DNA of 64,000 nucleotides, taken from contig CAZLQZ010000003.1 in the NCBI GenBank assembly GCA_964561995.1, forward strand, positions 5,056-69,055, written 5' to 3'. Source of the DNA: an uncultured Methanosarcinales archaeon. Its GTDB lineage: Archaea; Nanobdellota; Nanobdellia; Woesearchaeales; JABIAG01. The notes under the pieces were generated by a model. The model did no database searches. It was not told where the DNA came from and saw nothing but the letters and a program-made list of their open reading frames with translations. The translations under genes and the position numbers were made by a program. Below are positions 3,993 to 37,863 of the stretch, piece after piece. Position 1 is the stretch's first letter, and each line of letters starts with the position of its first letter.

Positions 3993-6032
3993 TTAAATTA
4001 TTGAAACTGGTGCTTCTCCATGTTCATTATAATCAAAATTATCTTTTTGAACGCCAAGATTATTAATAGAAGGGTCTACAGGAATTAATAAAAATTCAGC
4101 CTGATTACCATACCTAAAAGGGTTTTTTAGTGGAATTAGTCCTAATGGGGCAAGTGTTACCACATTATAAACCGGTTCGCCAAATCCTGAATTTAATGCA
4201 TTTGAGATAAGAACACTGGGCATTTGACCCATAGTATGATAAAAGTAATATTTGTTTTGGAAATCTTTTGTTTCAGTTCCATCTAAATTTTCTAAAACTA
4301 AAGTTGGATCCCTTAAGTTTAATTTAACAGCAGCATATTCAATAGAAGGATAAGGGGGGATTGCAACAGTTAACATTGGAGAAATAATTTCTAAAGGTTT
4401 AATAGGTAAAGTATCTTTAGAAGTTGCCTGCTTTTGTATTTCAAAAATATTACCATCATCATCATAAGCTACAATTTTAATGTTGTAGGGTTGATTATCT
4501 ATTAAATCATTTAAAACATAAACAAATTCACCATTATCATTAAAATAATAAGACATACCATTTTCAAACAGTCCTTGAGCACCAAAATTATATTCACACT
4601 TTAACGAATTTCCGGCATTTTGCATCCTACATCTATCAAAAGGTTTTTGATTACCATATCCCCAATCAATTTCATCATAAACTAAAACATCTTTGAAAGG
4701 AATAATTGTCTTTTTCAATTTATTATCAACATAAATCTCATACTTTTTCAAATCTAAAGACAAAGTATCTTTCCAAATAACCAATAATGTTCCTTGAGAA
4801 AACTCTTTTGATTCAACTCTAAAATCCTGAAGAGATAAAAAGGGTTCAACTTGGTCTTCAATATAAACTGCGAAATTATACTCCAAATTGTTTTCATAAG
4901 ATTGAATCTTTGATTGTGTTAAGTTAAACCTAAACATCCTATTTTCATAATCACATTCTTTTAAATTTAAACCATTATATAATTTTGATTTAGGTATGAA
5001 ATAAACATTTTTTGAATCTTTTTTATAAAAATCAATTTCGTCCATGGGAGTTAAGGGCAAGTTATTAGTTTTAATTGTGTCTTTTAAGTTATATTTAATA
5101 TTATTAACCCGGGGAACAGGAACATAATCATTTTGATTTTGTTCTGCAATATGAAAATTCAAACTTGTTTGATATAAATTTCCACTTTCGTTAATTACTC
5201 TATTACCAACATCAAAATCAAAAGTAATATCTTCTTTTAATGAAGAAAAAGAGACGTAACAATCTTTCTGCTTAATTCTTTCTAATGTTTGAATGTAATC
5301 AATAAATTTAATCTTTGGATTTGTAATAATTGTTTGTTTTAATTCAAAAGGTATTATTTTATTAAATTCCTCGGTTTTGATTTTAACACAATCATTCAAA
5401 TTTTGTGTTGTTTTAGTATTTTCTTTATTATTACAATCTTCTAAATTTAGAATAAATTGTTCAATTGCTTGATAAGCGGATAAATTATAATCAAAATATT
5501 TAGTAAAAGCTGGTTTAAAAGAATAAATCCTTTTATCTGGTTCTTTTTTAGAAATGTTTATTTCCCTATCTAAAACAGATAATCCAGTTATGCTAAATTT
5601 AGTATTGTTATTTGCAAAAAATTTGAAATAGTTTTTATTTAGTTTATTGGTTACAATTAAGTCCTGAAATGATTTATTAAAAGGAACTAAAATTTGTTTT
5701 TCAACATTAGGAATGCATTTTGCATATTCTTCATTTGAATTTTTATAACTCCACAAATTAGCATTTTGGTAACTGCCACACTTGTTTTTATCGGCAAAAC
5801 CACCATTTGATGCCAACTCATATATTGCATCAATACCTGCAAGATTAGCAACAGTGTCATATTGAAAAAGTTCTATTTGAGCTTCTTGGTATTTAAAAAT
5901 TATTTGAGACTGTATTGTTCCTAAGGGGTCTGCATTGAATTTTTCACTAAAATTAACAAATGCAATTAAAAGAGAAATAAGAGTAATAAAAACTAACATT
6001 ATGCTAAAGATATATGCTTTTTTATTCATCAT
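3993..6032 (-). CDS. Large (679 aa) surface protein with a prepilin-like N-terminus; last gene of the pilin-like array
   Basis: N-terminus 'MMNKKAYIFSIMLVFITLISLLIAFV' (basic, KA|Y, hydrophobic helix). Its start overlaps the upstream gene's stop by 4 nt. Confidence 0.6.
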   Translation of the reverse strand: MMNKKAYIFSIMLVFITLISLLIAFVNFSEKFNADPLGTIQSQIIFKYQEAQIELFQYDTVANLAGIDAIYELASNGGFADKNKCGSYQNANLWSYKNSNEEYAKCIPNVEKQILVPFNKSFQDLIVTNKLNKNYFKFFANNNTKFSITGLSVLDREINISKKEPDKRIYSFKPAFTKYFDYNLSAYQAIEQFILNLEDCNNKENTKTTQNLNDCVKIKTEEFNKIIPFELKQTIITNPKIKFIDYIQTLERIKQKDCYVSFSSLKEDITFDFDVGNRVINESGNLYQTSLNFHIAEQNQNDYVPVPRVNNIKYNLKDTIKTNNLPLTPMDEIDFYKKDSKNVYFIPKSKLYNGLNLKECDYENRMFRFNLTQSKIQSYENNLEYNFAVYIEDQVEPFLSLQDFRVESKEFSQGTLLVIWKDTLSLDLKKYEIYVDNKLKKTIIPFKDVLVYDEIDWGYGNQKPFDRCRMQNAGNSLKCEYNFGAQGLFENGMSYYFNDNGEFVYVLNDLIDNQPYNIKIVAYDDDGNIFEIQKQATSKDTLPIKPLEIISPMLTVAIPPYPSIEYAAVKLNLRDPTLVLENLDGTETKDFQNKYYFYHTMGQMPSVLISNALNSGFGEPVYNVVTLAPLGLIPLKNPFRYGNQAEFLLIPVDPSINNLGVQKDNFDYNEHGEAPVSII

Positions 6033-6628
6033 TTTTTAAACATCCGATACGCAAATAATACAGTACCATTATCTGTTGGAATTAAAATCTCTACTGACGG
6101 TGAAGTGATCCAAGTATTAATTGTACCTAAATGCATTAATTCACTATTTTGATACATAAACATACCATTTTGATCTTCTAAATAATAAGACATCCTTTTA
6201 TCAGCATCATTAAAAAAAACTTCCATGCATTCATGCCAAACTTTGTAAGATTTTGCAGCCAGTTCATCATTAAAACTATTTTTTAATTTTTTTTCATCAT
6301 CCAATACAGAATAAAGATTTTCAGCTTTTTCCTTGAGCCCTTTTTTAATGAAATAATTTACCAAATCAACAGGAGTCAAATTATCTAAATCATTTGCTTT
6401 TGCAAAACTACAATAATCTAATCGCGTGTTTAAATAAGCCACACCGTAACTTAAATCTGGAATGTTTTGATTTAATTCTCCTTCTATCTTTTGTTCAGAA
6501 GCGCTAAAATTATTAGTGCATGCCCTTAAATTAAACAAAACAATAAATACAATAATTACTAAAGCCCAAACTACCCAACTCCATACATCTACTATTGTTT
6601 CTGAAGGCCCCATAGCTCGTTTATTCAT
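6029..6628 (-). CDS. Pilin-like protein, 199 aa
   Basis: N-terminus 'MNKRAMGPSETIVDVWSWVVWALVIIVFIVLF'; 4-nt start/stop overlaps on both sides. Confidence 0.55.
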   Translation of the reverse strand: MNKRAMGPSETIVDVWSWVVWALVIIVFIVLFNLRACTNNFSASEQKIEGELNQNIPDLSYGVAYLNTRLDYCSFAKANDLDNLTPVDLVNYFIKKGLKEKAENLYSVLDDEKKLKNSFNDELAAKSYKVWHECMEVFFNDADKRMSYYLEDQNGMFMYQNSELMHLGTINTWITSPSVEILIPTDNGTVLFAYRMFKK

Positions 6629-7131
6629 TTTTGTACCAACACATCAATTATTATTTTTCCTTTCCAAAAATTAAAACCATCTCTAATTAATACAGGTCTT
6701 TCTACTTGCAAAGTTGCTAATCTTTCAGGATAATCTCTTAAAACATCAATTTCTGCATAATTTTTTTGCGTATCTTCATCATCTGAAACATAATACCTTT
6801 TTACAATTGAATTAGATGAATTAAACAAGTCTATTTTAAATGCGATATTATTTTTTTGAGTATATAACTTATTTGAAAAATCTACTGTTTGAAATTTATT
6901 TAAATCTACCACCCCGAATTCAACTCTTTTAGTAATTTGATCTTGATACATAATTAAATTTGAATTATAAATTTCTTCAGTAATTGATTGCATTTGAAGA
7001 TTTTCTACTTTGATGTCTTGTAAAACAAAAGTATAAGTAATAACTGAAACAACAATTACAGTAATTGCTAAGAAAATCATTTTCATAATGTACATTATAA
7101 AATCATAACTTAATGGACTTTCATTGGCCAT
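6625..7131 (-). CDS. N-terminally TM-anchored protein, 168 aa, within the pilin-like array
   Basis: N-terminus 'MANESPLSYDFIMYIMKMIFLAITVIVVSVITYTF'. The hydrophobic helix is present but there is no clear K/R-G motif. Confidence 0.5.
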   Translation of the reverse strand: MANESPLSYDFIMYIMKMIFLAITVIVVSVITYTFVLQDIKVENLQMQSITEEIYNSNLIMYQDQITKRVEFGVVDLNKFQTVDFSNKLYTQKNNIAFKIDLFNSSNSIVKRYYVSDDEDTQKNYAEIDVLRDYPERLATLQVERPVLIRDGFNFWKGKIIIDVLVQK

Positions 7132-8347
7132 TTCTTAACACCTCAGCAATTAAAGCTAGTTTATCGTCATTATGTAATACATTTTTATTTACATTACCAA
7201 TTTCAAAAATAATGTGTTTATCGTGAGTAGGAATTATTGCAACACCATCGATTGCAACATTTAATTGATCTTTGTAAAATTCAACACTCTGAGAACTAGC
7301 CCCACAAGTTAAAGATAAAACATCAATTACAATTTGTAAGTTATTATTATTTGAACCTTTAATTTTATCTAAAACTTCACAAGTATTGACATCATTAGGA
7401 GATGTCATAAATTGTTTACAAATAGCATTAATATCAGAATTATCAATTTCATCTTTCCAAATGTCTTGCACTTCACATAATAACTTAATTTGATTATATT
7501 CAAAACTAGATTCATCTATAGTTGGATCTAAAAATTGATTGATAATATTACAGGCAACATTATAATTTTCTTCATAATTTTCTTTGGGAACGTAAGCAAT
7601 AATAAATGAATGTCGAGGTTCATAATCTCCAAATGAAAGTAAAATGTGTTTATCTTTCAAATTTTCAGGACTAATATAATTATCAGTTAAAGAGGGGTCA
7701 ATTAATTTAGATAATTTTAAAGATTTATCAATTCCCAACCCCTTGTAAACTCGTTTATTATCAGTATAAAATTCTTCTTCAAAACCATTTAATTTTGTTA
7801 TTACTTCTCCAGTAATTTCATTACCTTGCTTATCATAGTATTTATTTGCATCTCCAGATTTTAATGGCCTAATTGGAAGATTATAGGATGTTTTTGTACA
7901 TTCTAATTTTCTAAGTTCTTTATTGATTGATTGTTTTAACTCAAAATTATCCGTTTTTTGAATAGTTATTGAATTTTTTCCCACAGTTACAACATTAGAA
8001 GTTATATCAAATACTTGATCTATAATCAAAAGTTTAAGTCCAACATTTGAAATTGGAACTTCATCAGCAGTTTCTGCATATGAAATCCCGTCCTTGGTAA
8101 TATGAGAATAATAATCGTCCCATTTAAGCATTTGATTATCTTCCTCAGTTAAATAAGAATAATAAAAATTACCAGGAATTGCAGCAATGGTTGACATTAC
8201 AAATCCTAAGTTTTCTGACACCATTATTCTTCTTAAAGAATCTATGTCAATAGAATTAGCTCTGCCAATTAATGCAACAAAAATAATTCCTAATAATACG
8301 ACCTGAATGATAATAAGATACGTATCACTAATACCTCTTTTATTCAT
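7121..8347 (-). CDS. Pilin-like protein with a large ecto-domain, 408 aa
   Basis: N-terminus 'MNKRGISDTYLIIIQVVLLGIIFVALIG' (KRG|I). TATA-like 'tttatata' sits ~35 nt upstream in the 116-nt gap 8348-8463. Confidence 0.6.
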   Translation of the reverse strand: MNKRGISDTYLIIIQVVLLGIIFVALIGRANSIDIDSLRRIMVSENLGFVMSTIAAIPGNFYYSYLTEEDNQMLKWDDYYSHITKDGISYAETADEVPISNVGLKLLIIDQVFDITSNVVTVGKNSITIQKTDNFELKQSINKELRKLECTKTSYNLPIRPLKSGDANKYYDKQGNEITGEVITKLNGFEEEFYTDNKRVYKGLGIDKSLKLSKLIDPSLTDNYISPENLKDKHILLSFGDYEPRHSFIIAYVPKENYEENYNVACNIINQFLDPTIDESSFEYNQIKLLCEVQDIWKDEIDNSDINAICKQFMTSPNDVNTCEVLDKIKGSNNNNLQIVIDVLSLTCGASSQSVEFYKDQLNVAIDGVAIIPTHDKHIIFEIGNVNKNVLHNDDKLALIAEVLRNGQ

Positions 8348-8463: not shown

Positions 8464-9699
8464 TTAAGATTCAACAGTAATTTTGTACCCTTGTGCAGTA
8501 CAGTTTTTAATAAAATCTTCAGTCCCCTTAATATCGTCCCTACTAACTAAAGGATTAGGATAAGTTTCAATTAAATATTTAGCAAAACTATTAATAAAAG
8601 AATTTTCATCCCCCGGTAAATCTAACTCGGTTACTTCCTTAAAATCTGAATATTGAGGATTTTTCACTAAAGAATAAAGCCATTTGTATTCTCTAATATC
8701 AAAAGAAACAGGAGTTCCATCATCATAATAAACAAAATCACGTTTGAATTTTCCAATTATACATTTACAAGCATCACATGGTCCACCACAATCAATATTT
8801 ATTTCACCTTGTGAAATACTCCAAGATTCATCTTCACAATGTGGTACACAAATTCTGTCGCTTCTTCTGCACCCCTCGCCGTCTTGACAGTCATCATCAC
8901 CAATACAACCACACAATTTAGAAGAAGGATTACAGTAATTTGTTATACAATCATAATCACGTTGGCATTTTCTACCTATTGAACAAAATATGGGACATGA
9001 ACCTCCACAATCAATATCGGATTCAGAAGAATCTAAAATGTCATTAGAACACTTAGTAAGAAGGGCAGTCATAGAATTTATTTCAGTTCTTGTTAAACCC
9101 TTAACATCATTATTATTTTCTTTTATTGGAGTTGTTCTTATTACAATGTTTCCGTTTAAGTCAATTTTTTCTATAAGAATGTTAATTAAATCAAAATCAG
9201 TTAACGTTGTATAACTTCCAGAATATCCATAAGGTAAGGAATTTTTAAGTCTTGTTGAACCACTATAACCTTTTCCGTTAAAAATTGTTGGAGAAATGAA
9301 ATAAATATTATTTTCAAGAATTGAAGAACAAGCTAAAATTTTACTTTTTTCTTCAACTAAACAAATACAACCACCAGTTTTACAACCTAAATCTTCATAT
9401 TTTAATTCAATTGGGGAACCGGGTTCAAAAAGATTAGAACTTTTATCGGCATTTATATCAATTGCAATAAGACCATAACCATTTTTAATGTAAAAAGGCA
9501 TTTCTTTAGCAATATACTTTTCTTCAGATTCTAAAAAATATTCTACAGTAGACGTAAATCTTTCATAATTTAACTGTGAAGCCGGATGTATCCCATCTGA
9601 TAAAAAAATACCATAAAGTTTAGCACCAATCATAATAATAATTAATAATGCAATACCTGCAAGAACTAAATGCAAAACTTCACCCATAAATCCTTTCAT
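8464..9699 (-). CDS. Pilin-like Cys-rich protein, 411 aa, carrying two 'DIDCGG' Cys modules
   Basis: N-terminus 'MKGFMGEVLHLVLAGIALLIIIMIG'. Modules 'ESDIDCGGSCPIFCSIGRKCQRDYDCITNYC' and 'EINIDCGGPCDACKC' are related to the modules in 10325..11575 and in the giant protein. Confidence 0.6.
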   Translation of the reverse strand: MKGFMGEVLHLVLAGIALLIIIMIGAKLYGIFLSDGIHPASQLNYERFTSTVEYFLESEEKYIAKEMPFYIKNGYGLIAIDINADKSSNLFEPGSPIELKYEDLGCKTGGCICLVEEKSKILACSSILENNIYFISPTIFNGKGYSGSTRLKNSLPYGYSGSYTTLTDFDLINILIEKIDLNGNIVIRTTPIKENNNDVKGLTRTEINSMTALLTKCSNDILDSSESDIDCGGSCPIFCSIGRKCQRDYDCITNYCNPSSKLCGCIGDDDCQDGEGCRRSDRICVPHCEDESWSISQGEINIDCGGPCDACKCIIGKFKRDFVYYDDGTPVSFDIREYKWLYSLVKNPQYSDFKEVTELDLPGDENSFINSFAKYLIETYPNPLVSRDDIKGTEDFIKNCTAQGYKITVES

Positions 9700-9763: not shown

Positions 9764-10264
9764 TTATTTTGCAAGAACACAACAACATCCATCTTTTGCC
9801 AAACAATCCTCTGCATGACCCACACATTTTGTAATTGAATCAAAAACATCTTGTTTGAAATCAGTTTTACACTTACTTTCGATATAACATCCTTTTTGTC
9901 TTGCACCAGTTTTAGAATCAACAATGTCAGAACACTTCTCAACAATACAACATTGAGAGTAGGTATCTATTTCATCATTAGAATAATCTGCTTGACTTAA
10001 TTTAAGTGCGACCTTTATTTGACTAGAAGGACAACCACCTTTTACCGTTCCCAATTGTTCGGAAGATTCAGTTGGACATCCTGTGTTTGAGCACATTCCA
10101 TAATTACTACCCACTGCATTTTCACAAGCAGAATAAGCCAAAACATTACTTGTACCAGACCTTATTTTAGTAATCCAAGGCAAACCAACAAAAGCTAAAA
10201 GTAAAAGTAAAACAACAGTAACTACCATAGTTGCCAATGCCAATTGTACTGCTTTTTTATTCAT
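9764..10264 (-). CDS. Pilin-like, extremely Cys-rich small protein, 166 aa
   Basis: N-terminus 'MNKKAVQLALATMVVTVVLLLLLAFVGL'; more than 20 Cys in about 130 mature residues. Confidence 0.6.
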   Translation of the reverse strand: MNKKAVQLALATMVVTVVLLLLLAFVGLPWITKIRSGTSNVLAYSACENAVGSNYGMCSNTGCPTESSEQLGTVKGGCPSSQIKVALKLSQADYSNDEIDTYSQCCIVEKCSDIVDSKTGARQKGCYIESKCKTDFKQDVFDSITKCVGHAEDCLAKDGCCCVLAK

Positions 10265-10324: not shown

Positions 10325-11575
10325 TTACTTTGAACACAAATGGTTAGAATCACAATTTGCCGATTTACAATCCAAATTTATTAAACAATTTTCTCCAATT
10401 TCACATTTAAGACGACATGAACCACCACAATCAACATCGGTTTCGTCACCATCTTTTAAACCAGTATTACAAAAAAGATCCAAACAAATTCCTTCTTTAC
10501 CATACATAGTTTCACAAAAATCAGATTCACAATCTAAATCAATTTCGCATCGTTTTCCATTTTCACATTTAAAACAATGACCTCCACAATCAACATCGGT
10601 TTCATCACCATCTTTTGAACCAGTGTTACAATAATTTTTCATACACTTTTTTTCTTTATCATTTGCAGATATTCCACAAATACTAGATTCACAATCCTGA
10701 CCATTTAAACATTTATTATCGTATTCACATTTATTACATCTATCGCCACCACAGTCAACATCAGTTTCGTCAGGATCTTTGTTACCATTATTACAAAGAC
10801 TTTCACGACAAATTCCAGTTTTATCATTAGACATTTCACAAAAATCAGATTCACAATCTAAATCTATTGAACAATTTTTTCCATTTTCACAGCTATCACA
10901 TTCTTCACCACCACAGTCAACATCAGTTTCATCTTCATTAACTTCACCATCAAAACAACGATGTATATCTAAATCATAACCTTTATACTTACAATAAGAA
11001 ATAAAATATTTAATGCCTTTTTCTTCAGATTTTGAATTCATATCAACAGCTATTGTTTTATGTTCACCGTACAATGAATCAATAATTTCATCATAACTTC
11101 CTTCCTTATCATTAAACTTCAAAGTAAGTACATCGCCAGAATAAATATATTGAGTAGTATCACCATATAAATTAAATATTAATTCGTCCAAATAATTAAT
11201 TTTACATGAAGTTTCGCTATCTTTGCCTTCTTGTTCAAGATATATACAACATTTTAAATCATCAGCGATAGACTCTCTAGAATAAGTTATAAAATAATCT
11301 CCTTCAACTTTTGTTAATTTTTTACATTCCGCATTATTTAATACTGTGACTGAATCGTACTTTTTACCAGAACTTTTAACAATATCTAGTTCATTATATT
11401 CGTCTTTAATTTGAGAACAAAACTTTTTTGTTTTATCTTGAATTTCATTAAGACTTGAGCTTTGTTGGGAAAATGATTTGAAAACAATCAATAAAACAAC
11501 CGATGCAACAATAAGTACCATTACCATTATTACGGCTCCATTCATACTCAAACCAAAACCACCTTTCTTGTTCAT
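10325..11575 (-). CDS. Pilin-like protein (416 aa) with a paralogous N-domain plus four tandem six-Cys 'ETDVDCGG' modules; candidate tip adhesin
   Basis: N-terminus 'MNKKGGFGLSMNGAVIMVMVLIVASVVLLIVF'. Its N-domain aligns to the 137-aa protein 11635..12048 ('KFCSQ...ECKKL...LKCCIY' against 'KYCFQ...ECQVL...LLCCLY'). The C-terminal half holds 4 repeats 'NxGxKDxDETDVDCGGxxCxKCE..C....DCxSxxC'. A TATA-like motif lies in the upstream gap. Confidence 0.65.
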   Translation of the reverse strand: MNKKGGFGLSMNGAVIMVMVLIVASVVLLIVFKSFSQQSSSLNEIQDKTKKFCSQIKDEYNELDIVKSSGKKYDSVTVLNNAECKKLTKVEGDYFITYSRESIADDLKCCIYLEQEGKDSETSCKINYLDELIFNLYGDTTQYIYSGDVLTLKFNDKEGSYDEIIDSLYGEHKTIAVDMNSKSEEKGIKYFISYCKYKGYDLDIHRCFDGEVNEDETDVDCGGEECDSCENGKNCSIDLDCESDFCEMSNDKTGICRESLCNNGNKDPDETDVDCGGDRCNKCEYDNKCLNGQDCESSICGISANDKEKKCMKNYCNTGSKDGDETDVDCGGHCFKCENGKRCEIDLDCESDFCETMYGKEGICLDLFCNTGLKDGDETDVDCGGSCRLKCEIGENCLINLDCKSANCDSNHLCSK

Positions 11576-11634: not shown

Positions 11635-12048
11635 TTATTTCCCATCATCTGACCTATATAAACAACAGAGTAAATTATCTTCTTCTACATCTTTTGTTGT
11701 AAATACAGCATAATCAGTTTCTTTTATTCCTTTGTCGTCATCACCAACTTTAACAGAATTTGCTTTTTCTTTAGCTAATACTTGACATTCTGAATCTTTA
11801 AGAACATTAATTGATTGATACCTTATATATTGTTCATCTTCATTTTTTGAAGTTTCATATTTTTTATTTAACTCTTCAACAACTTGAAAACAATACTTAC
11901 TTCTTTTATCCTCAATATTGCCCAAATAACCTGAAAACGATCTCACTCTATTAAATACGGCAGGAATTGTAAAAGCTAATAAGAAAACTAAAACAAGCAT
12001 AATTGCAACCGTTGTAATTGTAAGTGACACGCCTTTATTGTTTATCAT
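11635..12048 (-). CDS. Pilin-like protein, 137 aa (paralogue of the N-domains of 10325..11575 and 12783..13145)
   Basis: N-terminus 'MINNKGVSLTITTVAIMLVLVFLLAF' (KG|V). Confidence 0.6.
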   Translation of the reverse strand: MINNKGVSLTITTVAIMLVLVFLLAFTIPAVFNRVRSFSGYLGNIEDKRSKYCFQVVEELNKKYETSKNEDEQYIRYQSINVLKDSECQVLAKEKANSVKVGDDDKGIKETDYAVFTTKDVEEDNLLCCLYRSDDGK

Positions 12049-12406: not shown

Positions 12407-12423
12407 TTTAATATAAAAAAAAA

Positions 12424-12714: not shown

Positions 12715-12732
12715 TATAGACACCTCATGTTA

Positions 12733-13145: not shown

Positions 13146-13291
13146 CTTATATTTTTATACGCTTGAAAAAAGTCGGCAGAGTTAATTAAAAACCAAATTA
13201 CAATAAATAATAATATTCCAAGCATAACCCAAATAATTATGCTTTTCCAAGCAAGATCAAATCCGCCTTTTTTATTATTAAATAATTTCAT
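13142..13291 (-). CDS. Minimal 49-aa prepilin ORF missed by the ORF track
   Basis: Hand translation of the minus strand: MKLFNNKKGGFDLAWKSIIIWVMLGILLFIVIWFLINSADFFQAYKNIR. Its ATG overlaps the TGA of 13288..14220 (ATGA), and its TGA overlaps the ATG of 12783..13145 (ATGA). Confidence 0.55.
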   Translation of the reverse strand: MKLFNNKKGGFDLAWKSIIIWVMLGILLFIVIWFLINSADFFQAYKNIR

Positions 13292-26800: not shown

Positions 26801-29800
26801 ACAGGTTCAACATTATCAATAATAACTTCAAAATCTTTAGTAATTACATTAGTTGATTTATCTTCCATCATTAATTGTAACATTATTTTTTCATAAGAAT
26901 AAAGAGTTGTATCAAACTTAAATCTAATTTGGGGACTTTTTATTTTTCCAGGAGTTAGTAATTTTGGCGAATCTATTTCTTCACTGTAATAATAAAAATC
27001 AATCTTTTCTTCTGCAAAAGGGAGAGTATCATTTGTTACATTAATTCTGTATGCTCCATAATTATAACCTGCGTGATTTCTAATATCTAAAAAATCAACA
27101 TCTAAACTTAAAATGGGTTTATTATTTCCAATAACTAAACTTTCATCTTCGCCTTCAATAGACTTGATTTGGGGGTTTTCATCATCAGTATGAACAATTG
27201 CATAATGTTCATATTGCTGCCCTTCATCTCCAGAATCACGATTTACATAAATTGAAGAAATATTAATCAAATAATCCTTTCCATTTTCTAACAAATTACC
27301 AGATTTAAAAGAAACATTATATTTGTTTAAACCTTCATAAGTTTCAGGTACATCAAATACTTGTATTTGTGCTTTTTTAATTGTATCTCCACTTATTGCA
27401 GTTACGTTTCTTAATGAAATATTAAACTTGTTATTAGTAGTATATAATTCAATTGTAAAACTAGTTTCGCAATTGGCATTAAGATAAAAGTGTTCAATAT
27501 AAGGCATATCCTTATACTCTTCGGGTTCATACAAATTGTCAACTTTTCTTCCAGAATCTAAAAGATTCATTTCAATATCAAAAGCACAAGGGTCATAATA
27601 AATAGTGTTTAAATAACTTCCAGTTTGAGAATTTCCCACTTTATCTTTTGCTTCAACATTTATATCAAAAGAAACTCTATTTTCAGTTGTTTCATCACAT
27701 TCAAAGAAATCAAAAAAATCAACATTTTCATCAGTTAACAATTCACTATTAATACCTATATTAAATATGTTACCTTGAGAATTTTTAACAACATAATCTA
27801 ATGACAGTTCTTGAATATAGCCATAATCATTCAAAACGTATTTTAGGTCTGAATCAAAACCAGTAATTGTTAAAAAAATTTTACCTTTTGAAATGGTAAC
27901 TTTAATTGAAGATTTGTTTAATGAATCTACTCCAGAAAATTGTTCAACTAATGTTATACCAATTCCTCTTTCTAATGTTGAATATGCATTATCTAAAGGT
28001 ACAACATTTACTTGCGGACCAATTAAATCAACAAAAAACTCTTTTTGTTCAGTATGATAATTAGCTACATCATCATACAACTTAAAATCATAAACATACC
28101 TTCCCCTTTCATCAAAATCATCAGATTCATTACTAAAAGTAAACAATCCGGGATAGTTATCATAATTATAAAAATTAAATATTTCAGTGTCATTAGTTAA
28201 GAAAACATCAACTGCATCAATTAAAGTAATATGATAATACAATCCAGAAGAACCGTCACATTCACCATTTTCTGCAGAGAAAGAAGCAGGAAGGTCATAT
28301 CCATAAAGTTTTAAGTTTATAGGACCATTAACTGCAATATATTTGTTTTCATAAGTTCGTATTGCTTCTTTATCATTTTCATCAATTAAATCATTAGGAA
28401 TACACAAAAGCAAATTATCGTTTTTTGTTTGTTTCAATATCTTTCTATCTGAAATAGAAAATTCCATTTCTTCATCTAAAGCATAATTAACAATTAAATT
28501 TTCTAAAAAAATAATTTCATTTTTATCTGAAGCAATAACTTCTACAGTGTCATCAGCTGAAACGCCAACAAAATTAATTGTTTGTCCTGAACCATAAAAT
28601 TGTCCATCTGCCGGACTATTCCAATCAATACTTGAAGGGGCAGTCGTATCTAATTTAAAATTAATATCGAAATCAGCAGATAATTGAGAATTTACACTTT
28701 TAACATCAAACAATCTTAAGGTTTTTTCATTACCTGACTCATCTTCTTTAAAGATTTTTAATTCATAAAGTTTAGAATTTTCTCCAGCTTCATTAAGTAA
28801 AAAATTATAATTTTTATCAAATCCATTCAAGATTCCTGCATTTCTAAAAATAGTTTCAACATTTTCGTCAAAAGTTAGATTTATTAAAAATGCATCATGT
28901 AAATCATCTGAATCATAATCACCATAACCTATTTTGTAAGTATCAGTTTGCGAATTATATTGACAATTAGGTTTTATTTCACAATCTATAAAAGTATAGT
29001 TCAATAATACTGCTGGCGTTGAATCATTTACTGAAACATTAAATTTAATTGTATCATTACATACTCCTGCAGCATCACACAATTTTATAAACATAGAATA
29101 ATTTCCAAAAACTAAGAAATCGTAATCATCTTGAGTTAAGTTACCTTCAAAAGTATTTTCATCAATTAAATCTAATTCAAAATCTTTTACATTACTTCCG
29201 TCTTTTACAAATTTAATACTGCTAAAGTTAACCAATTGAGTATATTTTGGATCTGCACCTTTAACAACAAAAGTATAGTTTTGTTTTTTATCTAATGTGA
29301 AATTCTCTTTATTATATGGTAAAACAAATCCATCATCAATTTTAGTAATTGTTATGGGATTTTGTGATTCTGTTTTTTCAATTAATACTGGAGGAATAAA
29401 ATCAACAAAATAAACAGACAAATCAGAACTGGTTTCTTGATTCAAATGGTCTATGGCGTATACCGTTACTAAATTCATACCATGATTTAATTTTATTTTC
29501 CCATTGTAAGTATATTCAGTAGGGAAGTCATTATTAGTTGACAATTCAGTAATAAATACATTACTATCTAAAACCCATTCGGTAGATTCAAAATCGGATT
29601 CTGACTCATAATTTTTAACTTCTACTAAAGCTGCCTTCATACCTTTATCTTCAGAAATAATTACCTCAGCATCAATATTGATTATTTCTAAAGGAACACT
29701 AAGATAAATAGAAAGTTCTTCACTATTTTTTTTTAGTGTTGTACTTTGAATTTCTGGTGCACCCGAATCTAAATTAGATGAAAAATCAAATAATACCTTA

Positions 29801-32800
29801 TTTAAGTTTGAAATACCATCTTGTGCACTTACTTTAACTAGGCCATCGACACTTTCTAAACTAAATACTCCATTATAAGAAGTTGAAGTTGGAGGAATTG
29901 AATCAGAATAAGTAAAAATTTGACAAACATCCAATCCTGCTTCATAAGGATAATTGCTTACATCTGCCAAAGTGATTTTTGAAATTATTTTTTGAGAATA
30001 TAATGGTGCCTTTAATTTATCACCACAATTATTTAAATCGTTAATTTTAAATTCATAATCTTTTTTACCATCAATTGTAAAATTTTCAAACACAAAATTA
30101 GCATACTCATCAACAACCATATTCTCTGAATTAATCAAAATCGATTTATCAATTAATAATCCATTTTCATAAGCTTCAATTGAATAATCGCAACTTGATG
30201 AAGGTTTACTAGCAATCATTAAATCAAAAGAGTGCACTAAATATTCATTATCAAAACTAAGAGTAACATTAATTTCTAGATTAGATGTTGTTATTCCAGA
30301 AGGAATATTATCTATTTTTGCAATTTCATTTCCTGCCAAATGTAATGATTGTCTTGTATCTTTACATTCTAATTTAATTTGAGAAGAAGAAGAAAATGCC
30401 ACATTACTTGTTTTTCTTAAAAATCCATAACTGTCAGTATCTCCATCATTAAAATCATTAAATTCTTCATCATTAATTTCAATTACAATTTCAGGAGAAA
30501 AAGCATCAATAACTAATGTAAAACTTTCATTATCAGAAATAGTCTCACCATTAATTGTTTTTGAACAATTATAATCAACTTGATAAACGCCATTTGGATT
30601 ATCGCCCAAAAGGTCTCCATAATCTATAAAATCACTTTTTAAACAAAAATATCCCTCTTCAAAATATGTATCACTACAACCAGAATCAACATTAACAACT
30701 TCATATTGTTGTGAAGTAAAACCATTTCTAAATGTATAACTACATTCGCTTGGTTCAAATGAAAAACTAGTTGTATAGGATAATAATTTAAAATCTGATC
30801 CTTTTGTTCTTATTCCTGTATCTAAATAATTATGAACTTCATCATCTAAAGAAACTGCCTTAAATAAAGATTTCTCAATTATTGGGTCTTTATCAACTAA
30901 AAAATGGCGTGTTGCAATATCAATGTTACCAGTAACATCCAAGCATCTTAATTTTAAAATATATTCGCCATCTTTTAATCCGGGCACAGAAATTTCCGCT
31001 ATGTCCCCTTCAGAAACTTCAATTCCATCTCTTAAATAATCACTATAAATTAAATAATTAAAACTCTCATCGTACAATTTTTCAAAAGTTTCAGTACAAC
31101 CTCCTCTTGCAGAAGTACTTACCTTATATTGCACATTAAGAGTCATTCCTTGTGCATCTTCATCTAAACTTTGTTCTAAAATATTAATTAATGGAGGAGA
31201 AGTATCAATAGGAAATGATAACTCTTTAACTTTTTCTTTATTAAAATTTTGATCTTCAGTAAAATATCTTACAAACCTTGTTCCAGAAGGAATAGGTAAA
31301 TCACCATCATAAAAATAAGACCTATACTTTTGATTTTCTATTTCAATTGGATCTAAACTAATGGTGGGGTCTAAAGCATAAATAAAATTTTGATTTGACC
31401 AATCATTATCTAAAATGTGTCTATCATAAGTACAATCATTTAGCTCATCTTCTCCAAAACAATAATATAAAATAAAATTAGCCAAATAATATTCATCTAA
31501 ATATTCATCCTGGTCATCAACTTGAATTGTGAATTTCACTTCACTTTCAGACATAAAAGTTGAAGTTTTAAGTTGATCATTTGCAGAAGTACTTTTCTTA
31601 ACTATTTGAACAGAAGTTCTAGGGGGATTTAAATCCTGTTCACATTCAATAAATATTGAATCAAATTGCGGTGAAGGATCTGTTAAAGCACGTCCATAAC
31701 TTCCTTCAATATTATCACAACTACTCTTTCTACAAAATTCTTCAGTCGGAATTTTATCACCATAAAGTGCATCATTTTCAAATCTTCTATCGCTCACATC
31801 CCAATTACAAGCTTCAAAACCACATGAATTATAATATTCAACAGAATCAGCATCCACAAAACCATTACAATCTTCAGCTTCAAAAATCATACATCCTTTT
31901 TTCAAATTAATAATATCTTCACAATCAGAACAAACACTGACTTCATCAGAATCTAATTTTCCACAAGATTCATTATGACCTATTGCTGAACAAACATCTT
32001 TATTACAGCCAGAAAGCAGATCAATTTTATCACATTCAGAACATAAATTTTCATTTTCATCTTTTGAAACACAAATTCCTTCTCCTAAATTAGTTGTTTC
32101 TGGAATAGAAACCCAACTACATCCTGTTTCTTCAGAGCTTTGCAATCCTAAATTACAATGGTCTATTTCACAAGCATATTGAGATTTATATCCTAAACAA
32201 CTATCAATTCTAAGACAACTTCCACAAGAATCGGTTACCCTATTATCAATTGAAGTTATAGAATTTTCATCATCAAGAACATATCTTGAATAATCCAAAT
32301 AACAATAATTAGGATTAGTTGAACTACCTTCACACGTTTTAGCATTGTTTGTTTCCCATGAATAAGTTTTAAAATTGAGTAATCCAAAAAAGTTTGAAAC
32401 TCCAAACAAGTTTCCTGTATAAGAAGTACCAAAAGAACTACATTCATCAGCTTCAACACAATTTGCATTTGGTTTACCATTTTCGTATGAATTTAAACAA
32501 TAAAGGTCATAAGGATCAGAAGGACAATCATTCAATCCCAAAACTTTCAATCCTCCCAAATATTCAAATAAAAACTCACTTCCAAGTTCATAACTTAAAG
32601 TGGATCTACTTTGATCATTACAACTGTATTTTGTTTTTGAATTTAAAGAAGGAATACAAAAATTATCATTCAAAGATAAACCATCACAAATTTTATCGCC
32701 AGAAAATTTGACACTTGTATTTTTAATACCATTACATCCACCAACAGTAACATCATCAGAAATACCACAATTTCCTACTCCTTTTATAATTAATTCATAA

Positions 32801-34860
32801 ATATAATAACTATCGTATTCAGTAGAATCATCAATAAAAGTAAAAGCTTCTAAATTTTTATGAAGTCCAGATTGTGATCCTGAACCTTGAAAATCATCTT
32901 CTTCAAACAAAAATATTTCGTCAATTTCAAATTTATCGTCCAACTTACTATTTATGTTGAATTTCTTTCTAATTATTTCAACTTCAGCAATTTTATCAGC
33001 ACACAAATCATTAATCCAATTAATTGCTAAACTGGGTTTATTATATGCATAATTTAATACATCATAATTATTAGTAGGGAATTCAGGATTAAAATCACTT
33101 GCAACATTACAAAGATGAGCTTCGGGTTCTGGAACAATTAAATTGCCAACATCAGCTTGGGACCCAGCATAATAGGTATTTATTGTCTCATCGGGTTCAG
33201 CATAAACATATTGAACTGCATTAGGATTATATATTAATTCGATTTCTAAATTTCTTGAAATGCTAAAAAATTTAATTTTCATTTCATTAGTAAAAGTATC
33301 AGGAAAAACTGGCAAAGCCAAACTAAACTTTCCGGGATTGGAATTAGATTCTGTTCCTGTTGTAATATATTCATCACTTTCAAGCGGCTTTCTAAAAAGA
33401 AATATATCATTTTTATCATAAACTTTAACATAAATTGGTGTATTTTCTAAAGCTGGATAAGTATCTTTTGGTTCTCCATTAATTTCTTCAACAATTTTAC
33501 CAAAAATAATTTTTGGTACTCCACCATCACAAGGAATATTTGAAAATTCAAAACTGTTTGAACTTCCACAACAAAATTGTCTTTCATATTCATCATAATT
33601 AATAAAGAAACCATCGGTTTGATTACCACAAAAACAATCATCAGTTGATACTTCGGAACCAAAAGTACAAGATTTAACATCATCAACTTTCAAATTACAA
33701 CAAACTTCACTTCCATCTTGACAAACAAGTCTGGTTTCATTTTCTCCACTTATACCTTCACATGTTGCTTTAGACATACAATGTCCGCCATTAATATGAT
33801 AATCATCACATTTGTCAACGCAAGTACCTAATTTACATCTAGCATTAGCATCACAATCGGTGTCTGCAATACATTCTGCATCATAACTACTTTTTTCTAA
33901 AGTAACTGTTTGTGAATAATCTTCATTAGAAGTATAAACTGCAGAATAAGTTTGATAACCAGATTTATAAAATTGAATTCCAACTTGAGTACTTGAAAGA
34001 ATTTGAATTGTTACTTCTCCGTCAGAATCAGTAATTCCAGAATCAGTACAACCAGAAATACAATTAACGGCAACATCATCTAATAATTCATCATCACTTT
34101 TATTTTGAACAGTAAATTCTACATCAACATAACTCAACTGAGAAGGTGTTAAACTTATTTGAATTGTTTCGTCTGAATCAGTTACAGTAATAGTTTGTTC
34201 TAAAGGTAAAAAACCTATAGCATCAAAAGTAAATCTATAACTTCCCTTGGGATGAGATATTTTAAGTAGGGCCAAATTATTATTTTCGTCATCATCACTT
34301 TGATCTTGCCAAGTACCAAAAACTGAAGAAGCAATACCATTAGAAGAAGTGATTTTTGAACCATCGTTTTTATTTAAAAATTTAAAAGTAATTGGTTCTT
34401 CAGGGATTTGATTACCGCATTGATAAAAATCATCAGATTCAAAAAAAACAGTATTTAAATAATCTGCAATTTGAGAAGATTTATTTTCACATTCAATTTT
34501 GGAAACTAATTCAATTACTTGTTCTTGGCCGCCATCAGTAGTAGTATAATAACAACAACCTTCTTGACACTGACCGCCAAGCGTAGGACTCGAACAAGCA
34601 GTTAATCTAAAAAAATTAGAACCAGAACAATCACTCCACGAACGATAAGTACAATAATCTTCACCCTGATCTAAAGGAATTAAACAACACCCATTATTAT
34701 CACAAGAACCTACTTCAGATGTATAGCCAGAACATGAAATTTCATCATCATCAACACATTGGCCGTCAATAATACAAACATCGGCAAATACTGGAAATAA
34801 GATAGTTAAGAATAAAACTAAAAATACCACTAAACCTAGCACTATCCCTCTTTTTTGCAT
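17812..34860 (-). CDS. Giant (5,682 aa) Cys-rich, beta-rich surface protein: N-terminal signal, C-terminal six-Cys modules, thrombospondin-type-3-like Ca-binding repeats, a single TM helix and a ~190-aa Pro/Lys-rich cytoplasmic tail; putative adhesin
   Basis: Uninterrupted 17-kb ORF. N-terminus '[29 protein letters not shown]' is either a Sec signal or a class-III-like signal. C-terminus: '...[46 protein letters not shown]...' (DxDxDG repeats), then TM '[23 protein letters not shown]', then '[22 protein letters not shown]...[12 protein letters not shown]'. GGTGA SD and TATA lie in the 89-nt upstream gap. Confidence 0.8.
   Translation of the reverse strand: [5682 protein letters not shown]
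18150..18330. repeat. Tandem ~33-36-nt DNA repeats encoding the '(N)KLPPL(xK)' repeats of the giant protein's cytoplasmic tail
   Basis: The + strand shows 'aaaggaggtaaattcttatttaaag / aaaggaggtaattttttatttaaag / ggggaagtttactcgttaaag / ggggcaatttatttaatgg'. The antisense ORF 17804..18388 in the track is an artefact of this region. Confidence 0.6.
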
Positions 34861-34949: not shown

Positions 34950-36392
34950 TTAATTGACTATTATTTGGGCAGTATCATAATCAGAATATTTTTTCCAATT
35001 GGCACCCATTTTACCAGTAACGCCATCTTTTATTATGATGTCTAAATTGTACAAACCGTTCGAAGTAGGCGAAATTGTATAATCATAACAATCACAATTA
35101 ATTTCATCAACAATGCAAGACCTTTTAACAGTTGTCCAAGTAGAAGGAATTCCACTAATTGTTGGATTCATTCCAAATATAAACTCTTCATCTGGATCAA
35201 CATAACAAACTTGCAAAGTCCTATGTTTATTATCAAAAGTAATTACACGAACATCTTGTAAAACTGGAATTCTATTTTCCACAGCGAAAGTAAACTTGAA
35301 GGGTTGTCCAGCCAAAGTTCCATCATCATTATCTAAAACAACTTCATAAAGATGATAATATTTCCCATTGTTTTCAATGTTGTGAACATAATTAATCATT
35401 GGATTTTGAATCCTTGCAGCCAACTGTAAACCGGCCTGTACATCATTAAATCCTTTTGAAAAATTAAATCCAGGAATTTGTGCTTCAGATTCCAAAATTT
35501 TGTTTAAGGTATCAATAATTGATTTAAGTTTTATTGCAAATCTTCTTGACCTAACTTGCGGTAATTCGGCACTAAATACATTATCTTTTGAAGAAATTGT
35601 AAGATTTGGAATAATTGAAAAATCTAAACTTCTTCCAGAAAAATCAGAATATAAACTAAAATCAGATAACTTAACATCATATTGAGGAAAAGTGATATTA
35701 TTAAAACATTCAGGAAAAGTTTTTTCTACAAAATATTCAAGCATATTCTGAATAGAACCATTACAATTTATTGAACACTTACATCCTAAATCTTCAGAGG
35801 AATTTCTCCCACACAATTTTAATCTTTTATTTGTTGAAAAACCAGCAATAGGAATATCCAAGGTATAATCTTTCATACAGTTTTCACCAAATTCTGAAAA
35901 ATTAATTTGAACTTCAGAATCAAAAAAAGGAGATTTGTACATTGAAAAACAAGGATATAAAGGAGGAGTAAAATGTACTGGAGAATCAAGGTTCACGTAA
36001 TCACCATTTATCCCACTAGAATCTGTCAACTCAGAAGCAGTAATTAAAATAGTATAATTCTTATCACTAACATTTATTGTATTTCCACTTGGGTCAAGAT
36101 CAAAGTCTCTTCCAACTTGTATTTCATTACCTCTTTTTGTAGTATAATTTTGATTTTTGTACAAAAAACCACCTTGCCTAGAAATTAATTTTAAACCTTC
36201 AGTTACTGATTCATCTAAACAAGATTTAATTGTTTGATCAACATTAGTATTTGCAATAATTTCTTCAACAGTAATTTGTATTTGTTCTTGAGTTTTTTGT
36301 TGAGCAGATTGATTAAGTACATAAAACATAAATCCAAAAACAAACAAAACAAGAAGCATCAAAATAATAAAAATAGTAACTTGGCCTTTCAT
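34950..36392 (-). CDS. Surface protein with a prepilin-like N-terminus, 480 aa
   Basis: N-terminus 'MKGQVTIFIILMLLVLFVFGFMFYVL' (KG|Q). It lies immediately upstream of the giant gene on the same strand. Confidence 0.6.
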   Translation of the reverse strand: MKGQVTIFIILMLLVLFVFGFMFYVLNQSAQQKTQEQIQITVEEIIANTNVDQTIKSCLDESVTEGLKLISRQGGFLYKNQNYTTKRGNEIQVGRDFDLDPSGNTINVSDKNYTILITASELTDSSGINGDYVNLDSPVHFTPPLYPCFSMYKSPFFDSEVQINFSEFGENCMKDYTLDIPIAGFSTNKRLKLCGRNSSEDLGCKCSINCNGSIQNMLEYFVEKTFPECFNNITFPQYDVKLSDFSLYSDFSGRSLDFSIIPNLTISSKDNVFSAELPQVRSRRFAIKLKSIIDTLNKILESEAQIPGFNFSKGFNDVQAGLQLAARIQNPMINYVHNIENNGKYYHLYEVVLDNDDGTLAGQPFKFTFAVENRIPVLQDVRVITFDNKHRTLQVCYVDPDEEFIFGMNPTISGIPSTWTTVKRSCIVDEINCDCYDYTISPTSNGLYNLDIIIKDGVTGKMGANWKKYSDYDTAQIIVN

Positions 36393-36393
36393 T

Positions 36394-37863
36394 TTATATT
36401 ACACATTCGTACCTTTTCCAAAGCTGCATGCCACCCGTTTCATAACAATCATAACATTCAGCATATTGAATTGAACATTCACCTGCATTAAAAATAGCAC
36501 CATCGTCACCATCACAATAATCAAGTTTATCCGCAATACAGCCAGTACCACTTTCATCCTGATATTGCCAAGTATAAGTTACAGGATCATTAATAGCATC
36601 ACAAGATAAATCGGCCATAGTTTCAGGCACTTCAAAACCACCGACTTGACCATAACTACGATCAGACAAAGTATCAGAACTATAAATTCTGATTTCTTTT
36701 GAATCAATTAATGGAAGATAAATATCTACCGAATTAACATGGATATTTTCAACCGAACCAGGCATATAAACCGAACTGGAAGAACTAACTTCATAAAGTC
36801 CATCAATATTATAATCAATATCGTAAACATTTAAATGATCATTTTCAAAATCACTTTGTTCAACAACATACAATTTTCCATTTTCAATTTCTTGAACATC
36901 TGAAGAACCAGGTAAAGTAAAACTAGTAAGTTCATTTAAATCGTAATCATAAACTTTAACAGTAGTTTGAGTTCCTGCCGCATTTATAAAAGATATAAAA
37001 ATTCTATTTTCAGATTCATCCCCTGCTTTTCCTTCGAAAAATGAAGAAGGTTCAAAATCATCAACACAAAATTGGTTTTGTGGAACAAGATTTAAGTCAT
37101 ATCTATTTACACATCCATAATACTCATCAAGAACATAAATCCCGTGATTATTAATTATAATATCTTCAGCTTTTCCTAAAGAACTACCATCAGCATCATA
37201 AGTGATTTTTTTACAACTTGAAGAAGGATCAGTTTCTAAAAAAGAAGAAGGATCAATTACTGCAAAAGAACCAGAAGAAGTTCCAGCATAAATCTTTCCA
37301 TCATAAAGTTGTACTTGGATAACATTTTGAAGACCTCTAACCTGTTTTAATTCGCATTGTTCAAATGAATTACTACAATCTAATTTGGCAATTGCATTTT
37401 TATAAGCAACCCAAAGTACCTTATTTACAAGAAATACATCTGTTGCTTCAAAAAATCCTTCAGGGTCAATTACTGAACTATAACCGCCAGAAGCCATAGA
37501 GGTAGCTTCCAAAGACAAACCACAAGAATCCGCATCAATATCGTCACAAGACAAATAGATTCGTTTACAGGTTACACCAGATTCATCAAAACCTGAAACA
37601 AAGGCTCCAAAAGAATTACACATTCTTGATTCTGCTAGTGACCAATCAATTTGATTCCATTTTACATTATTAACCAAATTGGCTTCATCAATTACCCCAT
37701 CACCATTTCTGTCAACACTTTCACCATCATCATTAACCAATTCTTGCAAAGTATGGTATGCTTTACTTAAGTCAACTTTAGCAGAAGCAGTAACAACAAC
37801 AATTAGAAGTAATAGAGTAAAAATTATAAAATTAGACATTTTATTTGAAATAACAATTTTCAT
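36394..37863 (-). CDS. Secreted protein (489 aa) with an EF-hand-like Ca-binding loop and a Cys pair near the N-terminus
   Basis: Sec signal 'MKIVISNKMSNFIIFTLLLLIVVVTASA|K'. 'DRNGDGVIDEANLV' then 'CNSFG...GVTC', as in 49280..50029 and 50069..50479. 1-nt gap to the downstream gene. Confidence 0.65.
   Translation of the reverse strand: MKIVISNKMSNFIIFTLLLLIVVVTASAKVDLSKAYHTLQELVNDDGESVDRNGDGVIDEANLVNNVKWNQIDWSLAESRMCNSFGAFVSGFDESGVTCKRIYLSCDDIDADSCGLSLEATSMASGGYSSVIDPEGFFEATDVFLVNKVLWVAYKNAIAKLDCSNSFEQCELKQVRGLQNVIQVQLYDGKIYAGTSSGSFAVIDPSSFLETDPSSSCKKITYDADGSSLGKAEDIIINNHGIYVLDEYYGCVNRYDLNLVPQNQFCVDDFEPSSFFEGKAGDESENRIFISFINAAGTQTTVKVYDYDLNELTSFTLPGSSDVQEIENGKLYVVEQSDFENDHLNVYDIDYNIDGLYEVSSSSSVYMPGSVENIHVNSVDIYLPLIDSKEIRIYSSDTLSDRSYGQVGGFEVPETMADLSCDAINDPVTYTWQYQDESGTGCIADKLDYCDGDDGAIFNAGECSIQYAECYDCYETGGMQLWKRYECVI

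Follow-up and report, generated by a model that had tools for sequence, protein, structure and literature searches.

Gene content and organization of the locus

A stretch of 64,000 nucleotides (nt) from an archaeal contig (CAZLQZ010000003.1), referred to here as the window, was analyzed computationally, with emphasis on a locus of surface-protein genes that runs from position 37863 down to 3993 on the minus strand. The locus consists of 21 consecutive minus-strand open reading frames (ORFs) in an unbroken series, among them a giant gene encoding 5,682 amino acids (aa) and a large set of genes whose products carry N-termini of the archaeal class III (prepilin) type. Our preferred reading, to which we assign a probability of slightly less than 60%, is that the locus encodes one half, the pilins and the adhesin, of a surface organelle which resembles type IV filaments and is conserved among DPANN archaea of the Woesearchaeota type. 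An earlier note, made from the sequence alone, had described a one-directional surface-protein locus containing the 5,682-aa ORF, and the 21 ORFs bear this out; product sizes of 49–679 aa for the genes other than the giant, and several Cys-rich products, were likewise confirmed from the ORF translations. The low GC content (∼28%) of this AT-rich archaeal window and the genes for RPA (2965-3951) and TBP (63393-63950), which the note had also listed, were all found again, and the window additionally codes for IscS/IscU and several radical-SAM enzymes.

The series opens with a gene for a secreted protein of 489 aa and 16 Cys (36394-37863), which has a Sec-type signal ending in TASA↓KV (the arrow marks the predicted cleavage boundary here and below) and no Pfam match. 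It is separated by 1 nt from the gene for a 480-aa class III-like protein (34950-36392; MKG↓QVTIF), the family of which includes a second product of the window (56380-58203), and the giant gene follows (17812-34860). Next come four genes for what we refer to as the core proteins: core protein 1 of 167 aa (17312-17815; MKA↓QTSTVF), the start codon of which overlaps the giant's stop codon in an ATGA; core protein 2 of 341 aa (16290-17315; family consensus KKG↓xxExQFNWIF); core protein 3 of ∼200 aa when read from the ATG at 16288 (15686-16288; SKKG↓QLQLMEST), or of 211 aa from an alternative TTG at 16321; and core protein 4 of 186 aa (15129-15689; KKG↓QLEIFGLAI), with an invariant Glu at +3. Beyond a spacer of 86 nt lie the genes for a 272-aa class III-like protein (14224-15042; NKKG↓VTLTQ) and its 310-aa paralogue (13288-14220), which has no Gly or Ala at −1 and contains a glycine-zipper at aa ∼200-270, followed by a 49-aa class III-like mini-protein that is essentially signal plus helix (13142-13291; NKKG↓GFDLAW) and a 120-aa class III-like protein (12783-13145; NKKG↓FNLTL). 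Two paralogous genes encode the proteins that we call mini-pilins, one of 96 aa from the ATG at 12714 and with a 6-Cys head (12424-12723; MSKG↓QGLSITTIVVAAIALL), the other of 99 aa with 8 Cys (12107-12406; NNKG↓FELSIS).

Distal to the mini-pilin genes, the N-terminal half of a 137-aa class III-like product (11635-12048; NNKG↓VSLTIT) is similar to that of the adjacent 416-aa class III-like product (10325-11575), which has 38 Cys and four ETDVDCGGxCxxC repeats. Further downstream are a 166-aa class III-like protein with 14 Cys (9764-10264; NKKA↓VQLAL) and a 411-aa class III-like protein with 22 Cys (8464-9699; MKG↓FMGEV) that has a Cys-rich repeat in common with the giant. A coupled four-gene unit, headed by the gene for a 408-aa class III-like protein (7121-8347; NKRG↓ISDTY), contains genes for a 168-aa protein with an N-terminal membrane helix and without a [KR][GA] motif (6625-7131), a 199-aa class III-like protein (6029-6628; NKRA↓MGPSE) and a 679-aa class III-like protein (3993-6032; NKKA↓YIFSI). 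The 679-aa gene is the last of the cluster; the RPA gene comes after it, an arrangement that recurs in several relatives.

Because the giant protein combines a Sec signal with a C-terminal membrane helix (∼aa 5464) and a basic, K/P-rich tail of ∼200 aa, it is predicted to be a Sec-exported type I membrane protein. Five K-LPPL repeats lie in the tail (17812-18400, aa ∼5490-5682), which is partly conserved in some relatives, with alignments extending to aa 5681-5682, and may serve as a docking site for a cytoplasmic partner. The ectodomain of ∼5,400 residues is acidic and non-repetitive; the idea of a tandem-repeat protein was rejected after self-BLAST found essentially no internal repeats at offsets >60 aa. 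Pfam scans, which took in every ORF of the window of at least 113 aa, returned only weak matches for the giant, namely Big_13 (immunoglobulin (Ig)-like, E 7.5e-15), CarboxypepD_reg and TSP_3, and the sole match among Protein Data Bank (PDB) sequences was to thrombospondin (TSP) type-3 Ca-binding repeats at aa ∼5351-5403. Immediately N-terminal to these (aa ∼5189-5349) are Cys-rich repeats of the form ETDxDCGGxCxxC, which are ∼40% identical to those in the 10325-11575 and 8464-9699 proteins and had no Pfam match in any of the three. Woesearchaeota proteins with the annotation ‘thrombospondin type 3 repeat-containing’ contain the same module, and it was found separately in proteins of Myxococcota. 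As a side observation, the repeat was noted in numerous extracellular proteins of Myxococcota and in records bearing the name of the rotifer Adineta, which suggests a widespread, undescribed extracellular module.

N-terminal signals were examined using a custom, FlaFind-like rule requiring [KR][GA] in the first 45 residues and, after it, a 15-residue window with a mean Kyte-Doolittle value >2. The rule fired on 18 of the 21 locus genes and on 3 of the 31 other genes of the window, the latter (49280, 52532 and 56380) all adjoining a prepilin peptidase gene that is discussed below; the background in related loci was 4 of 156 opposite-strand genes. In silico, 17 of the 21 locus products have an archaeal class III (prepilin-type) N-terminus, consisting of [KR][GA]↓x and then at least 20 hydrophobic residues, often with Gln at +1. 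Sec-type signals were found in the giant and in the product of gene 36394 (ASA↓K). In the products of genes 13288 and 6625 an N-terminal membrane helix is present but the [KR][GA] motif is missing. About 19 pilin-like genes had been counted after the giant, where there are 18, with the class III motif present in 16. A KRG↓I sequence in the giant itself had been taken for a class III signal; it fits better into a Sec signal that ends in PVFA↓D, of which it would form the n-region, because full-length relatives of the giant bear textbook Sec signals (LNAFA↓DEVGCC, VNA↓QTSGCCC and VYA↓QEPGCCC).

The 20 junctions within the locus comprise seven ATGA overlaps (giant/167, 167/341, 200/186, 310/49, 49/120, 168/199 and 199/679, designated by product length), one overlap of 11 nt, three gaps of ≤3 nt and nine spacers of 17–116 nt. 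Thus the ATGA overlap reported between the giant and the first pilin-like gene (17812-17815) is present, but the statement that most neighbours share such overlaps is incorrect. A TTTATA-type box is centred ∼28 nt before the ATG of genes 12424, 11635, 10325, 8464 and 7121, and oligo-T runs follow genes 12424 (a T9 run past the stop codon), 12107 and 11635. The giant gene has a box ∼70 nt upstream and a GGTGA Shine-Dalgarno-like sequence. From the nine spacers, several of which contain TATA-like boxes and oligo-T runs, at least eight transcription units are suggested in place of the single co-expressed operon of ∼20 genes that had been proposed. This prediction is reasonable but weak, since the boxes were read by eye and the count of the TATA pattern (16 observed vs. 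9.9 expected) was not significant in such AT-rich DNA. The locus is a genuine gene cluster, probably not a single operon, and its giant is not a prepilin.

Conservation of the cluster in DPANN archaea

An index-free HMMER search with the five proteins encoded after the giant produced 2,207 cluster representatives (E ≤1e-3), and each of the five had its own family of like-sized homologues. Comparison of an alignment of the 341-aa family with one genome per GTDB species resulted in ∼197 relatives, the best 80 loci of which were examined to 10-kb flanks (∼1.3 Mb in total). Nearly all of these loci came from metagenome-assembled genomes (MAGs) of Woesearchaeota, Nanoarchaeota or Nanobdellota, the closest at 43% identity. 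Many of the GTDB records that contain the cluster (including L008, L010 and L011) are titled ‘uncultured Methanosarcinales archaeon’, and two carry the names Binatia and Dehalococcoidales; these titles seem to reflect placeholder naming or the mis-binning of contigs, and not the organisms that really host the cluster.

Across these genomes the genes occur in a fixed, co-directional order: a class III protein of ∼420 aa, a large Sec protein, class III proteins of ∼165, 349, 164 and 167 aa, and mini-pilins of ∼92 aa. The ∼420-aa protein was found directly upstream of the large gene in 28 loci (its position often falling beyond the 10-kb flank), while the large protein, with a median length of 1,675 aa, was present in 64 loci, including 54 of the 67 with enough upstream sequence. 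The ∼165-, ∼349- (i.e. the 341-aa family), ∼164- and ∼167-aa proteins were found in 53, 81, 63 and 69 loci, respectively, the Cys-rich mini-pilins in 91 copies across 48 loci, and proteins of ∼298 aa in 38 loci. In closer relatives the rest of the gene series is kept as well, as far as the 679-aa gene and RPA. The coupling is likewise retained, with median junctions of −4 nt between the large gene and the ∼165-aa gene, ∼1 nt at the next two and −4 nt between the ∼164- and ∼167-aa genes. The synteny comparison across DPANN genomes that the earlier note had called for therefore shows the cluster order to be kept in dozens of species, and the attribution to a DPANN surface-apparatus locus with a giant and prepilin-like proteins agrees with relatives from Woesearchaeota and Nanoarchaeota MAGs in which the motif is retained within families. 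Less exceptional than supposed is the pairing of a large protein with a pilin set, seen in at least 54 of 67 informative loci; the window contains an expanded version of it.

The large proteins resemble each other essentially only in a C-terminal module, corresponding to giant aa ∼5150-5580, in which the Cys and TSP3 repeats are joined by the membrane helix and a portion of the tail. The ectodomains vary both in sequence and in length, from 750 to >3,177 aa. The giant of the window thus belongs to a conserved family, as an expanded form of it, and is no isolated fusion. That the 17-kb ORF is instead a pseudogene in decay, or an artefact of assembly or annotation, might be suspected from its extreme size and from Pfam matches that are confined to weak Ig-like hits, yet we find the notion barely credible. 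An independent Logan assembly of SRR8526173 calls the identical 5,682-aa product together with the same downstream genes, so the ORF at 17812-34860 is not an artefact of one assembly. Furthermore, the closest relative, a partial ORF of >3,166 aa, is 38% identical over giant aa 3881-5681, at least five other species have large proteins of >3,100 aa that end at the flank edge, and the giant itself has a uniform composition with signal, anchor and tail intact.

The [KR][GA] boundary was kept in 78 of 90 mini-pilins and 74 of 81 members of the 341-aa family, in 47/76, 36/65 and 35/49 members of other families, and in all 11 homologues of the 679-aa protein; in the family of the 13288-14220 product, which lacks the motif, it is retained by 15 of 28 homologues. 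Gln was dominant at +1 in five families. A Gln at this position is the hallmark of the Epd pilins of Methanococcus, which are processed by EppA, a peptidase specific for Gln at +1. These patterns bear on a simpler explanation, in which the N-termini are ordinary Sec signals or uncleaved anchors and the cluster is a collection of unrelated secreted and membrane proteins. The Sec-type signals of the giant and gene 36394 and the two genes without a [KR][GA] motif would fit it, but the other hydrophobic stretches span 20–25 residues with no AxA after them and form one long helix in confident models, and the Gly or Ala at the boundary and the Gln at +1 are kept across hundreds of homologues. Chance grouping is excluded because gene order is strict in 81 loci. 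We consider this explanation highly improbable.

A putative filament-like organelle and its alternatives

Structure predictions were examined for two of the core proteins. The AlphaFold2 (AF2) model of the 341-aa protein (mean predicted local distance difference test (pLDDT) 93) has an N-terminal helix of 52 residues (8-59) along with a beta domain and, C-terminally, a bundle of three helices, and that of the 186-aa protein (pLDDT 90) a helix of 54 residues (4-57), short helices and a 4-stranded antiparallel sheet (133-185). In both models the N-terminal helix is unbroken, exceeds 50 residues and leads from the hydrophobic segment into the globular domain; the predicted topology of the 186-aa protein is pilin-like. 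Comparison between families using hhalign showed likeness confined to the leader and first helix, which is the usual pattern of unrelated pilins. The mini-pilin gene at 12424, with its own TATA-like box, is a candidate for the putative major subunit. A C-proximal, Gly/Ala-rich hydrophobic ‘glycine-zipper’ of ∼70 residues was observed in the products of 13288-14220 (aa ∼200-270) and 56380-58203 (aa ∼440-520), and also, within the related loci, in at least 14 members of the ∼298-aa family; it could be a membrane-inserting element.

The pilin-like and secreted proteins of the locus had no match to any Pfam family, weak repeat-domain matches in the giant aside. Nine proteins compared with NCBIfam, eight of them pilin-like, returned nothing significant, with sub-threshold hints to ComGC and ComGD (ComGD at E 0.025), and neither did three family profiles searched against PDB sequences. 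Matches to HERV-K Env and TNFR in the profile searches were discarded as alignments of one membrane helix to another. The AF2 model of the 341-aa protein had no match in the PDB, and no fold match to pilins was obtained for the predicted models. The archaeal pilin N-terminal Pfam families likewise failed to match 51 members of the 341-aa family (E ≤0.1). Thus, assignment of these proteins to the class III or pilin type is based on the N-terminal signature, helix geometry, the peptidase and genomic logic, and not on family membership.

The peptidase in question is a prepilin (class III signal) peptidase of family A24 (314 aa, 50516-51460, plus strand; Peptidase_A24 PF01478, E 9.5e-8), encoded 13 kb from the locus as previously described. 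Both Asp motifs (YQDFK and AGDGK) were found in it and fit a two-Asp active site. With 8 predicted membrane helices, it resembles the long, 9-transmembrane (TM) EppA-type form of the enzyme, a form described previously (PMC4858521).

Taken as half of a type-IV-filament-like organelle, the locus could function as follows. The A24 peptidase would remove the short basic leaders. The mini-pilins (12424 and 12107), which are apparently separately promoted and often duplicated and would have ∼65–90 mature residues with a disulfide-knotted head, would polymerize, using the N-terminal helices, into a thin fibre of the Epd/Tad kind. The four core proteins (167, 341, 200 and 186 aa) may act as a minor-pilin-like priming or tip complex that docks on the membrane-proximal module of the large protein, with its Cys-rich and Ca-binding TSP3 repeats, while the hypervariable ectodomain, here expanded to a protein of 5,682 aa, would make contact with a host cell or a surface. 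Accessory adhesive subunits would be provided by the larger Cys-rich class III proteins. The polymerizing ATPase and its platform would be coded elsewhere in the genome, as is the case for bacterial fimU-pilVWXY1E relative to pilBCD.

Several observations weigh against this proposal. No T2SSE/FlaI or T2SSF/FlaJ domain was found in the window by Pfam, and no window gene contains a Walker A motif; the two scans agree with the earlier report that 64 kb hold neither a FlaI/PilB ATPase nor a FlaJ/PilC platform. A secretion ATPase or platform gene was also missing from the 10 kb to the left of the window, which code for RadA, a TRAM protein, ribosomal protein S2 and similar products, and from the 80 related loci, where no PilB/FlaI ATPase or TadC/FlaJ platform lay within 10 kb of the cluster. 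In those loci the Walker A pattern G..GSGK[ST]T was limited to two small unrelated proteins, and no conserved multi-TM or Walker-A family stood beside the cluster. Many of the ‘pilins’ are large (300–680 aa), and none of the pilin-like proteins of the locus matched a pilin family in the searches described above; 20 mini-pilins also gave no match to the archaeal pilin N-terminal Pfam families, even at E ≤1. The main difficulty, however, is the giant itself: its membrane helix and 200-aa cytoplasmic tail are hard to square with the tip of an extended pilus and suit a cell-anchored tether better than a tip adhesin. Of the two positions that had been suggested for the giant, the tip or the base of a pilus, the anchor and tail therefore argue against the former.

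These same features are accommodated by a membrane-anchored surface coat or anchoring complex without a filament, in which the large protein would be an S-layer-like or stalk protein with a C-terminal anchor and the class III proteins its N-terminally anchored partners, forming a bindosome-like scaffold at its base with no ATPase-driven polymerization. Like archaeal S-layer or surface-coat proteins, the giant combines a Sec signal with a large ectodomain and, at its C-terminus, a membrane anchor, and it has a cytoplasmic tail as well; many members of the cluster are large globular proteins with no fold match to pilins, an ATPase or platform gene is linked to the cluster in none of the 80 loci, and variation in the four core proteins goes together with that in the conserved module next to the membrane in the large protein. 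For type IV pilus (T4P) loci of Thermoproteales, a comparable large protein with a C-terminal anchor has been interpreted as S-layer-like (Makarova et al. 2016, PMC4858521). However, multi-copy proteins of ∼92 aa, in which a class III leader and a helix are joined to little else than a small Cys knot, are of a kind typical for fibre subunits and would be ill suited to a scaffold, and the conserved KG↓Q together with a dedicated A24 peptidase implies processing of the prepilin type. Moreover, the Sulfolobus bindosome on which such a scaffold is modelled is itself known to require an ATPase and platform pair (PMC4858521). We regard a coat without filament as possible, though doubtful.

A further proposal, which we judge unlikely, is a host-docking or bridging device that would be specific to DPANN archaea and of another kind than classical pili. 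In such a device the tetrad of prepilin-like core proteins would form a short stem on the giant's conserved membrane-proximal module and the glycine-zipper proteins (13288 and 56380) would enter the host membrane. With no dedicated ATPase linked to it, assembly would be ATPase-independent or would borrow a remote generic ATPase.

Neighbouring genes, comparison with known systems and significance

A second, partial paralogous set of surface-protein genes lies next to the peptidase gene (51437-58203, minus strand). It encodes a 607-aa class III-like protein with a Gly-zipper (56380-58203; MKNKA↓QVTLF), which is a paralogue of the 480-aa protein of the locus, an Ig-like surface protein of 1,289 aa (52532-56401), a 6-TM protein (51817-52605) for which neither Pfam nor NCBIfam gave a match, and a 113-aa protein (51437-51778) whose homologues stand directly upstream of the cluster in three related loci (L011, L023 and L039). 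Two small Sec-secreted, Cys-containing proteins are also encoded near the peptidase, in the region formed by this set and 49280-50479 (plus strand). Each of the two surface-protein regions is headed by a gene for a small cytoplasmic protein; these two proteins, of 84 aa (37902-38156) and 107 aa (48891-49214, minus strand), are paralogues (37% identity, E 2e-11), the 84-aa copy has no Pfam match, and they may be regulators.

Divergent from the locus, on the plus strand, is a gene for a 981-aa fusion of radical-SAM, SPASM and peptidase U32 domains (38228-41173). It is followed (41218-42891 and 42960-47132) by genes for two proteins without a family match, along with a 1,390-aa Cys-rich Sec-secreted protein. 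Membership of the radical-SAM/SPASM/U32 genes in the system was considered and rejected because no homologue adjoins the cluster in the 80 related loci, and from this comparison the fusion is probably outside the system. Two further radical-SAM enzymes are encoded at 47371-48735 and 58573-59811 (minus strand), one of them with a B12-binding domain; such a density of radical-SAM genes in 64 kb is unusually high for a small genome.

Archaeal T4P loci with large adhesin-like or C-terminally anchored proteins and with Cys-rich minor pilins have been described (PMC4858521; bioRxiv 10.64898/2026.04.22.720090). Among these, the T4P loci of Thermoproteales subclade 4G are similar to the cluster in that a single locus brings together two large proteins, one ‘S-layer-like’ with a C-terminal anchor and the other secreted, and numerous Cys-rich minor pilins that evolve rapidly (PMC4858521), but they are defined around an ATPase and TadC, neither of which is near the cluster, and lineage and protein families differ.

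The cluster also invites comparison with the Epd pili of Methanococcus maripaludis (‘system 1’ of the archaeal type four filaments (TFF)), reported in methanogens, Thermococcales and some DPANN. In both, the leaders are of class III with Gln at +1, the A24 peptidase is long, multi-TM and of the EppA type, several minor pilins accompany a very small major pilin (putative in the cluster) whose globular head is minimal or lacking, and adhesin-like large proteins are encoded in the locus. However, no sequence relationship was detected using the archaeal pilin N-terminal Pfam families on the 20 mini-pilins, and the Epd locus holds an ATPase and a two-gene platform, whereas none was seen near the cluster in 80 loci. 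In addition, the mini-pilins described here have a 6–8-Cys knot and the large protein a C-terminal anchor.

In bacteria, the closest parallels are the type IVa fimU-pilVWXY1Y2E operon and GspH-K of the type II secretion system (T2SS), in which four minor-pilin-like genes are coupled to a large non-pilin adhesin. As in the fimU-pilVWXY1Y2E case, the C-terminal part of the adhesin is conserved and the N-terminal part variable, Ca-binding motifs are present, and the ATPase and platform genes are unlinked. The cluster differs from both bacterial systems in its archaeal host and in the absence of detectable homology (ComGD, at E 0.025, falls well below the cut-off), and from fimU-pilVWXY1Y2E in gene sizes and in that the adhesin gene comes first. 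Unlike PilY1, the large protein has a membrane anchor, and the Pfam scan found neither a beta-propeller nor DUF2341 in it.

Giant surface proteins are not without precedent in DPANN lineages: SPEARE proteins of >5,000 aa were reportedly described by Hamm and colleagues in 2019 from episymbiotic Nanohaloarchaeota, with a proposed role in host contact. The giant shares with them its size class and a DPANN lineage; the serine-protease, adhesion and restriction-endonuclease domains by which SPEARE proteins are recognized were not found in it by Pfam. Unlike SPEARE proteins, which are not described in this way, the giant is coupled by its cluster to a pilin set.

In kind, the locus belongs with the known pilin and adhesin loci of archaeal type IV filaments. 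As a module it is new, with families that have no match in the libraries searched, a distribution over a wide DPANN clade, no linked ATPase and a C-terminally anchored large protein; a full-text literature search found no paper describing the cluster. Since it has no linked ATPase, the module is likely to escape pilus surveys that are seeded with ATPases. Woesearchaeota and other DPANN archaea are abundant, for the most part uncultured and presumed to live in attachment to other cells, and little is known of the molecules that they use for it. What began as one odd locus is now a defined module in ∼197 species representatives, consisting of an anchored large protein, four coupled class III proteins and mini-pilins. 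Host range may be determined by the hypervariable ectodomain of the large protein, and the tetrad, the conserved C-terminal module and the mini-pilins provide concrete targets for study.

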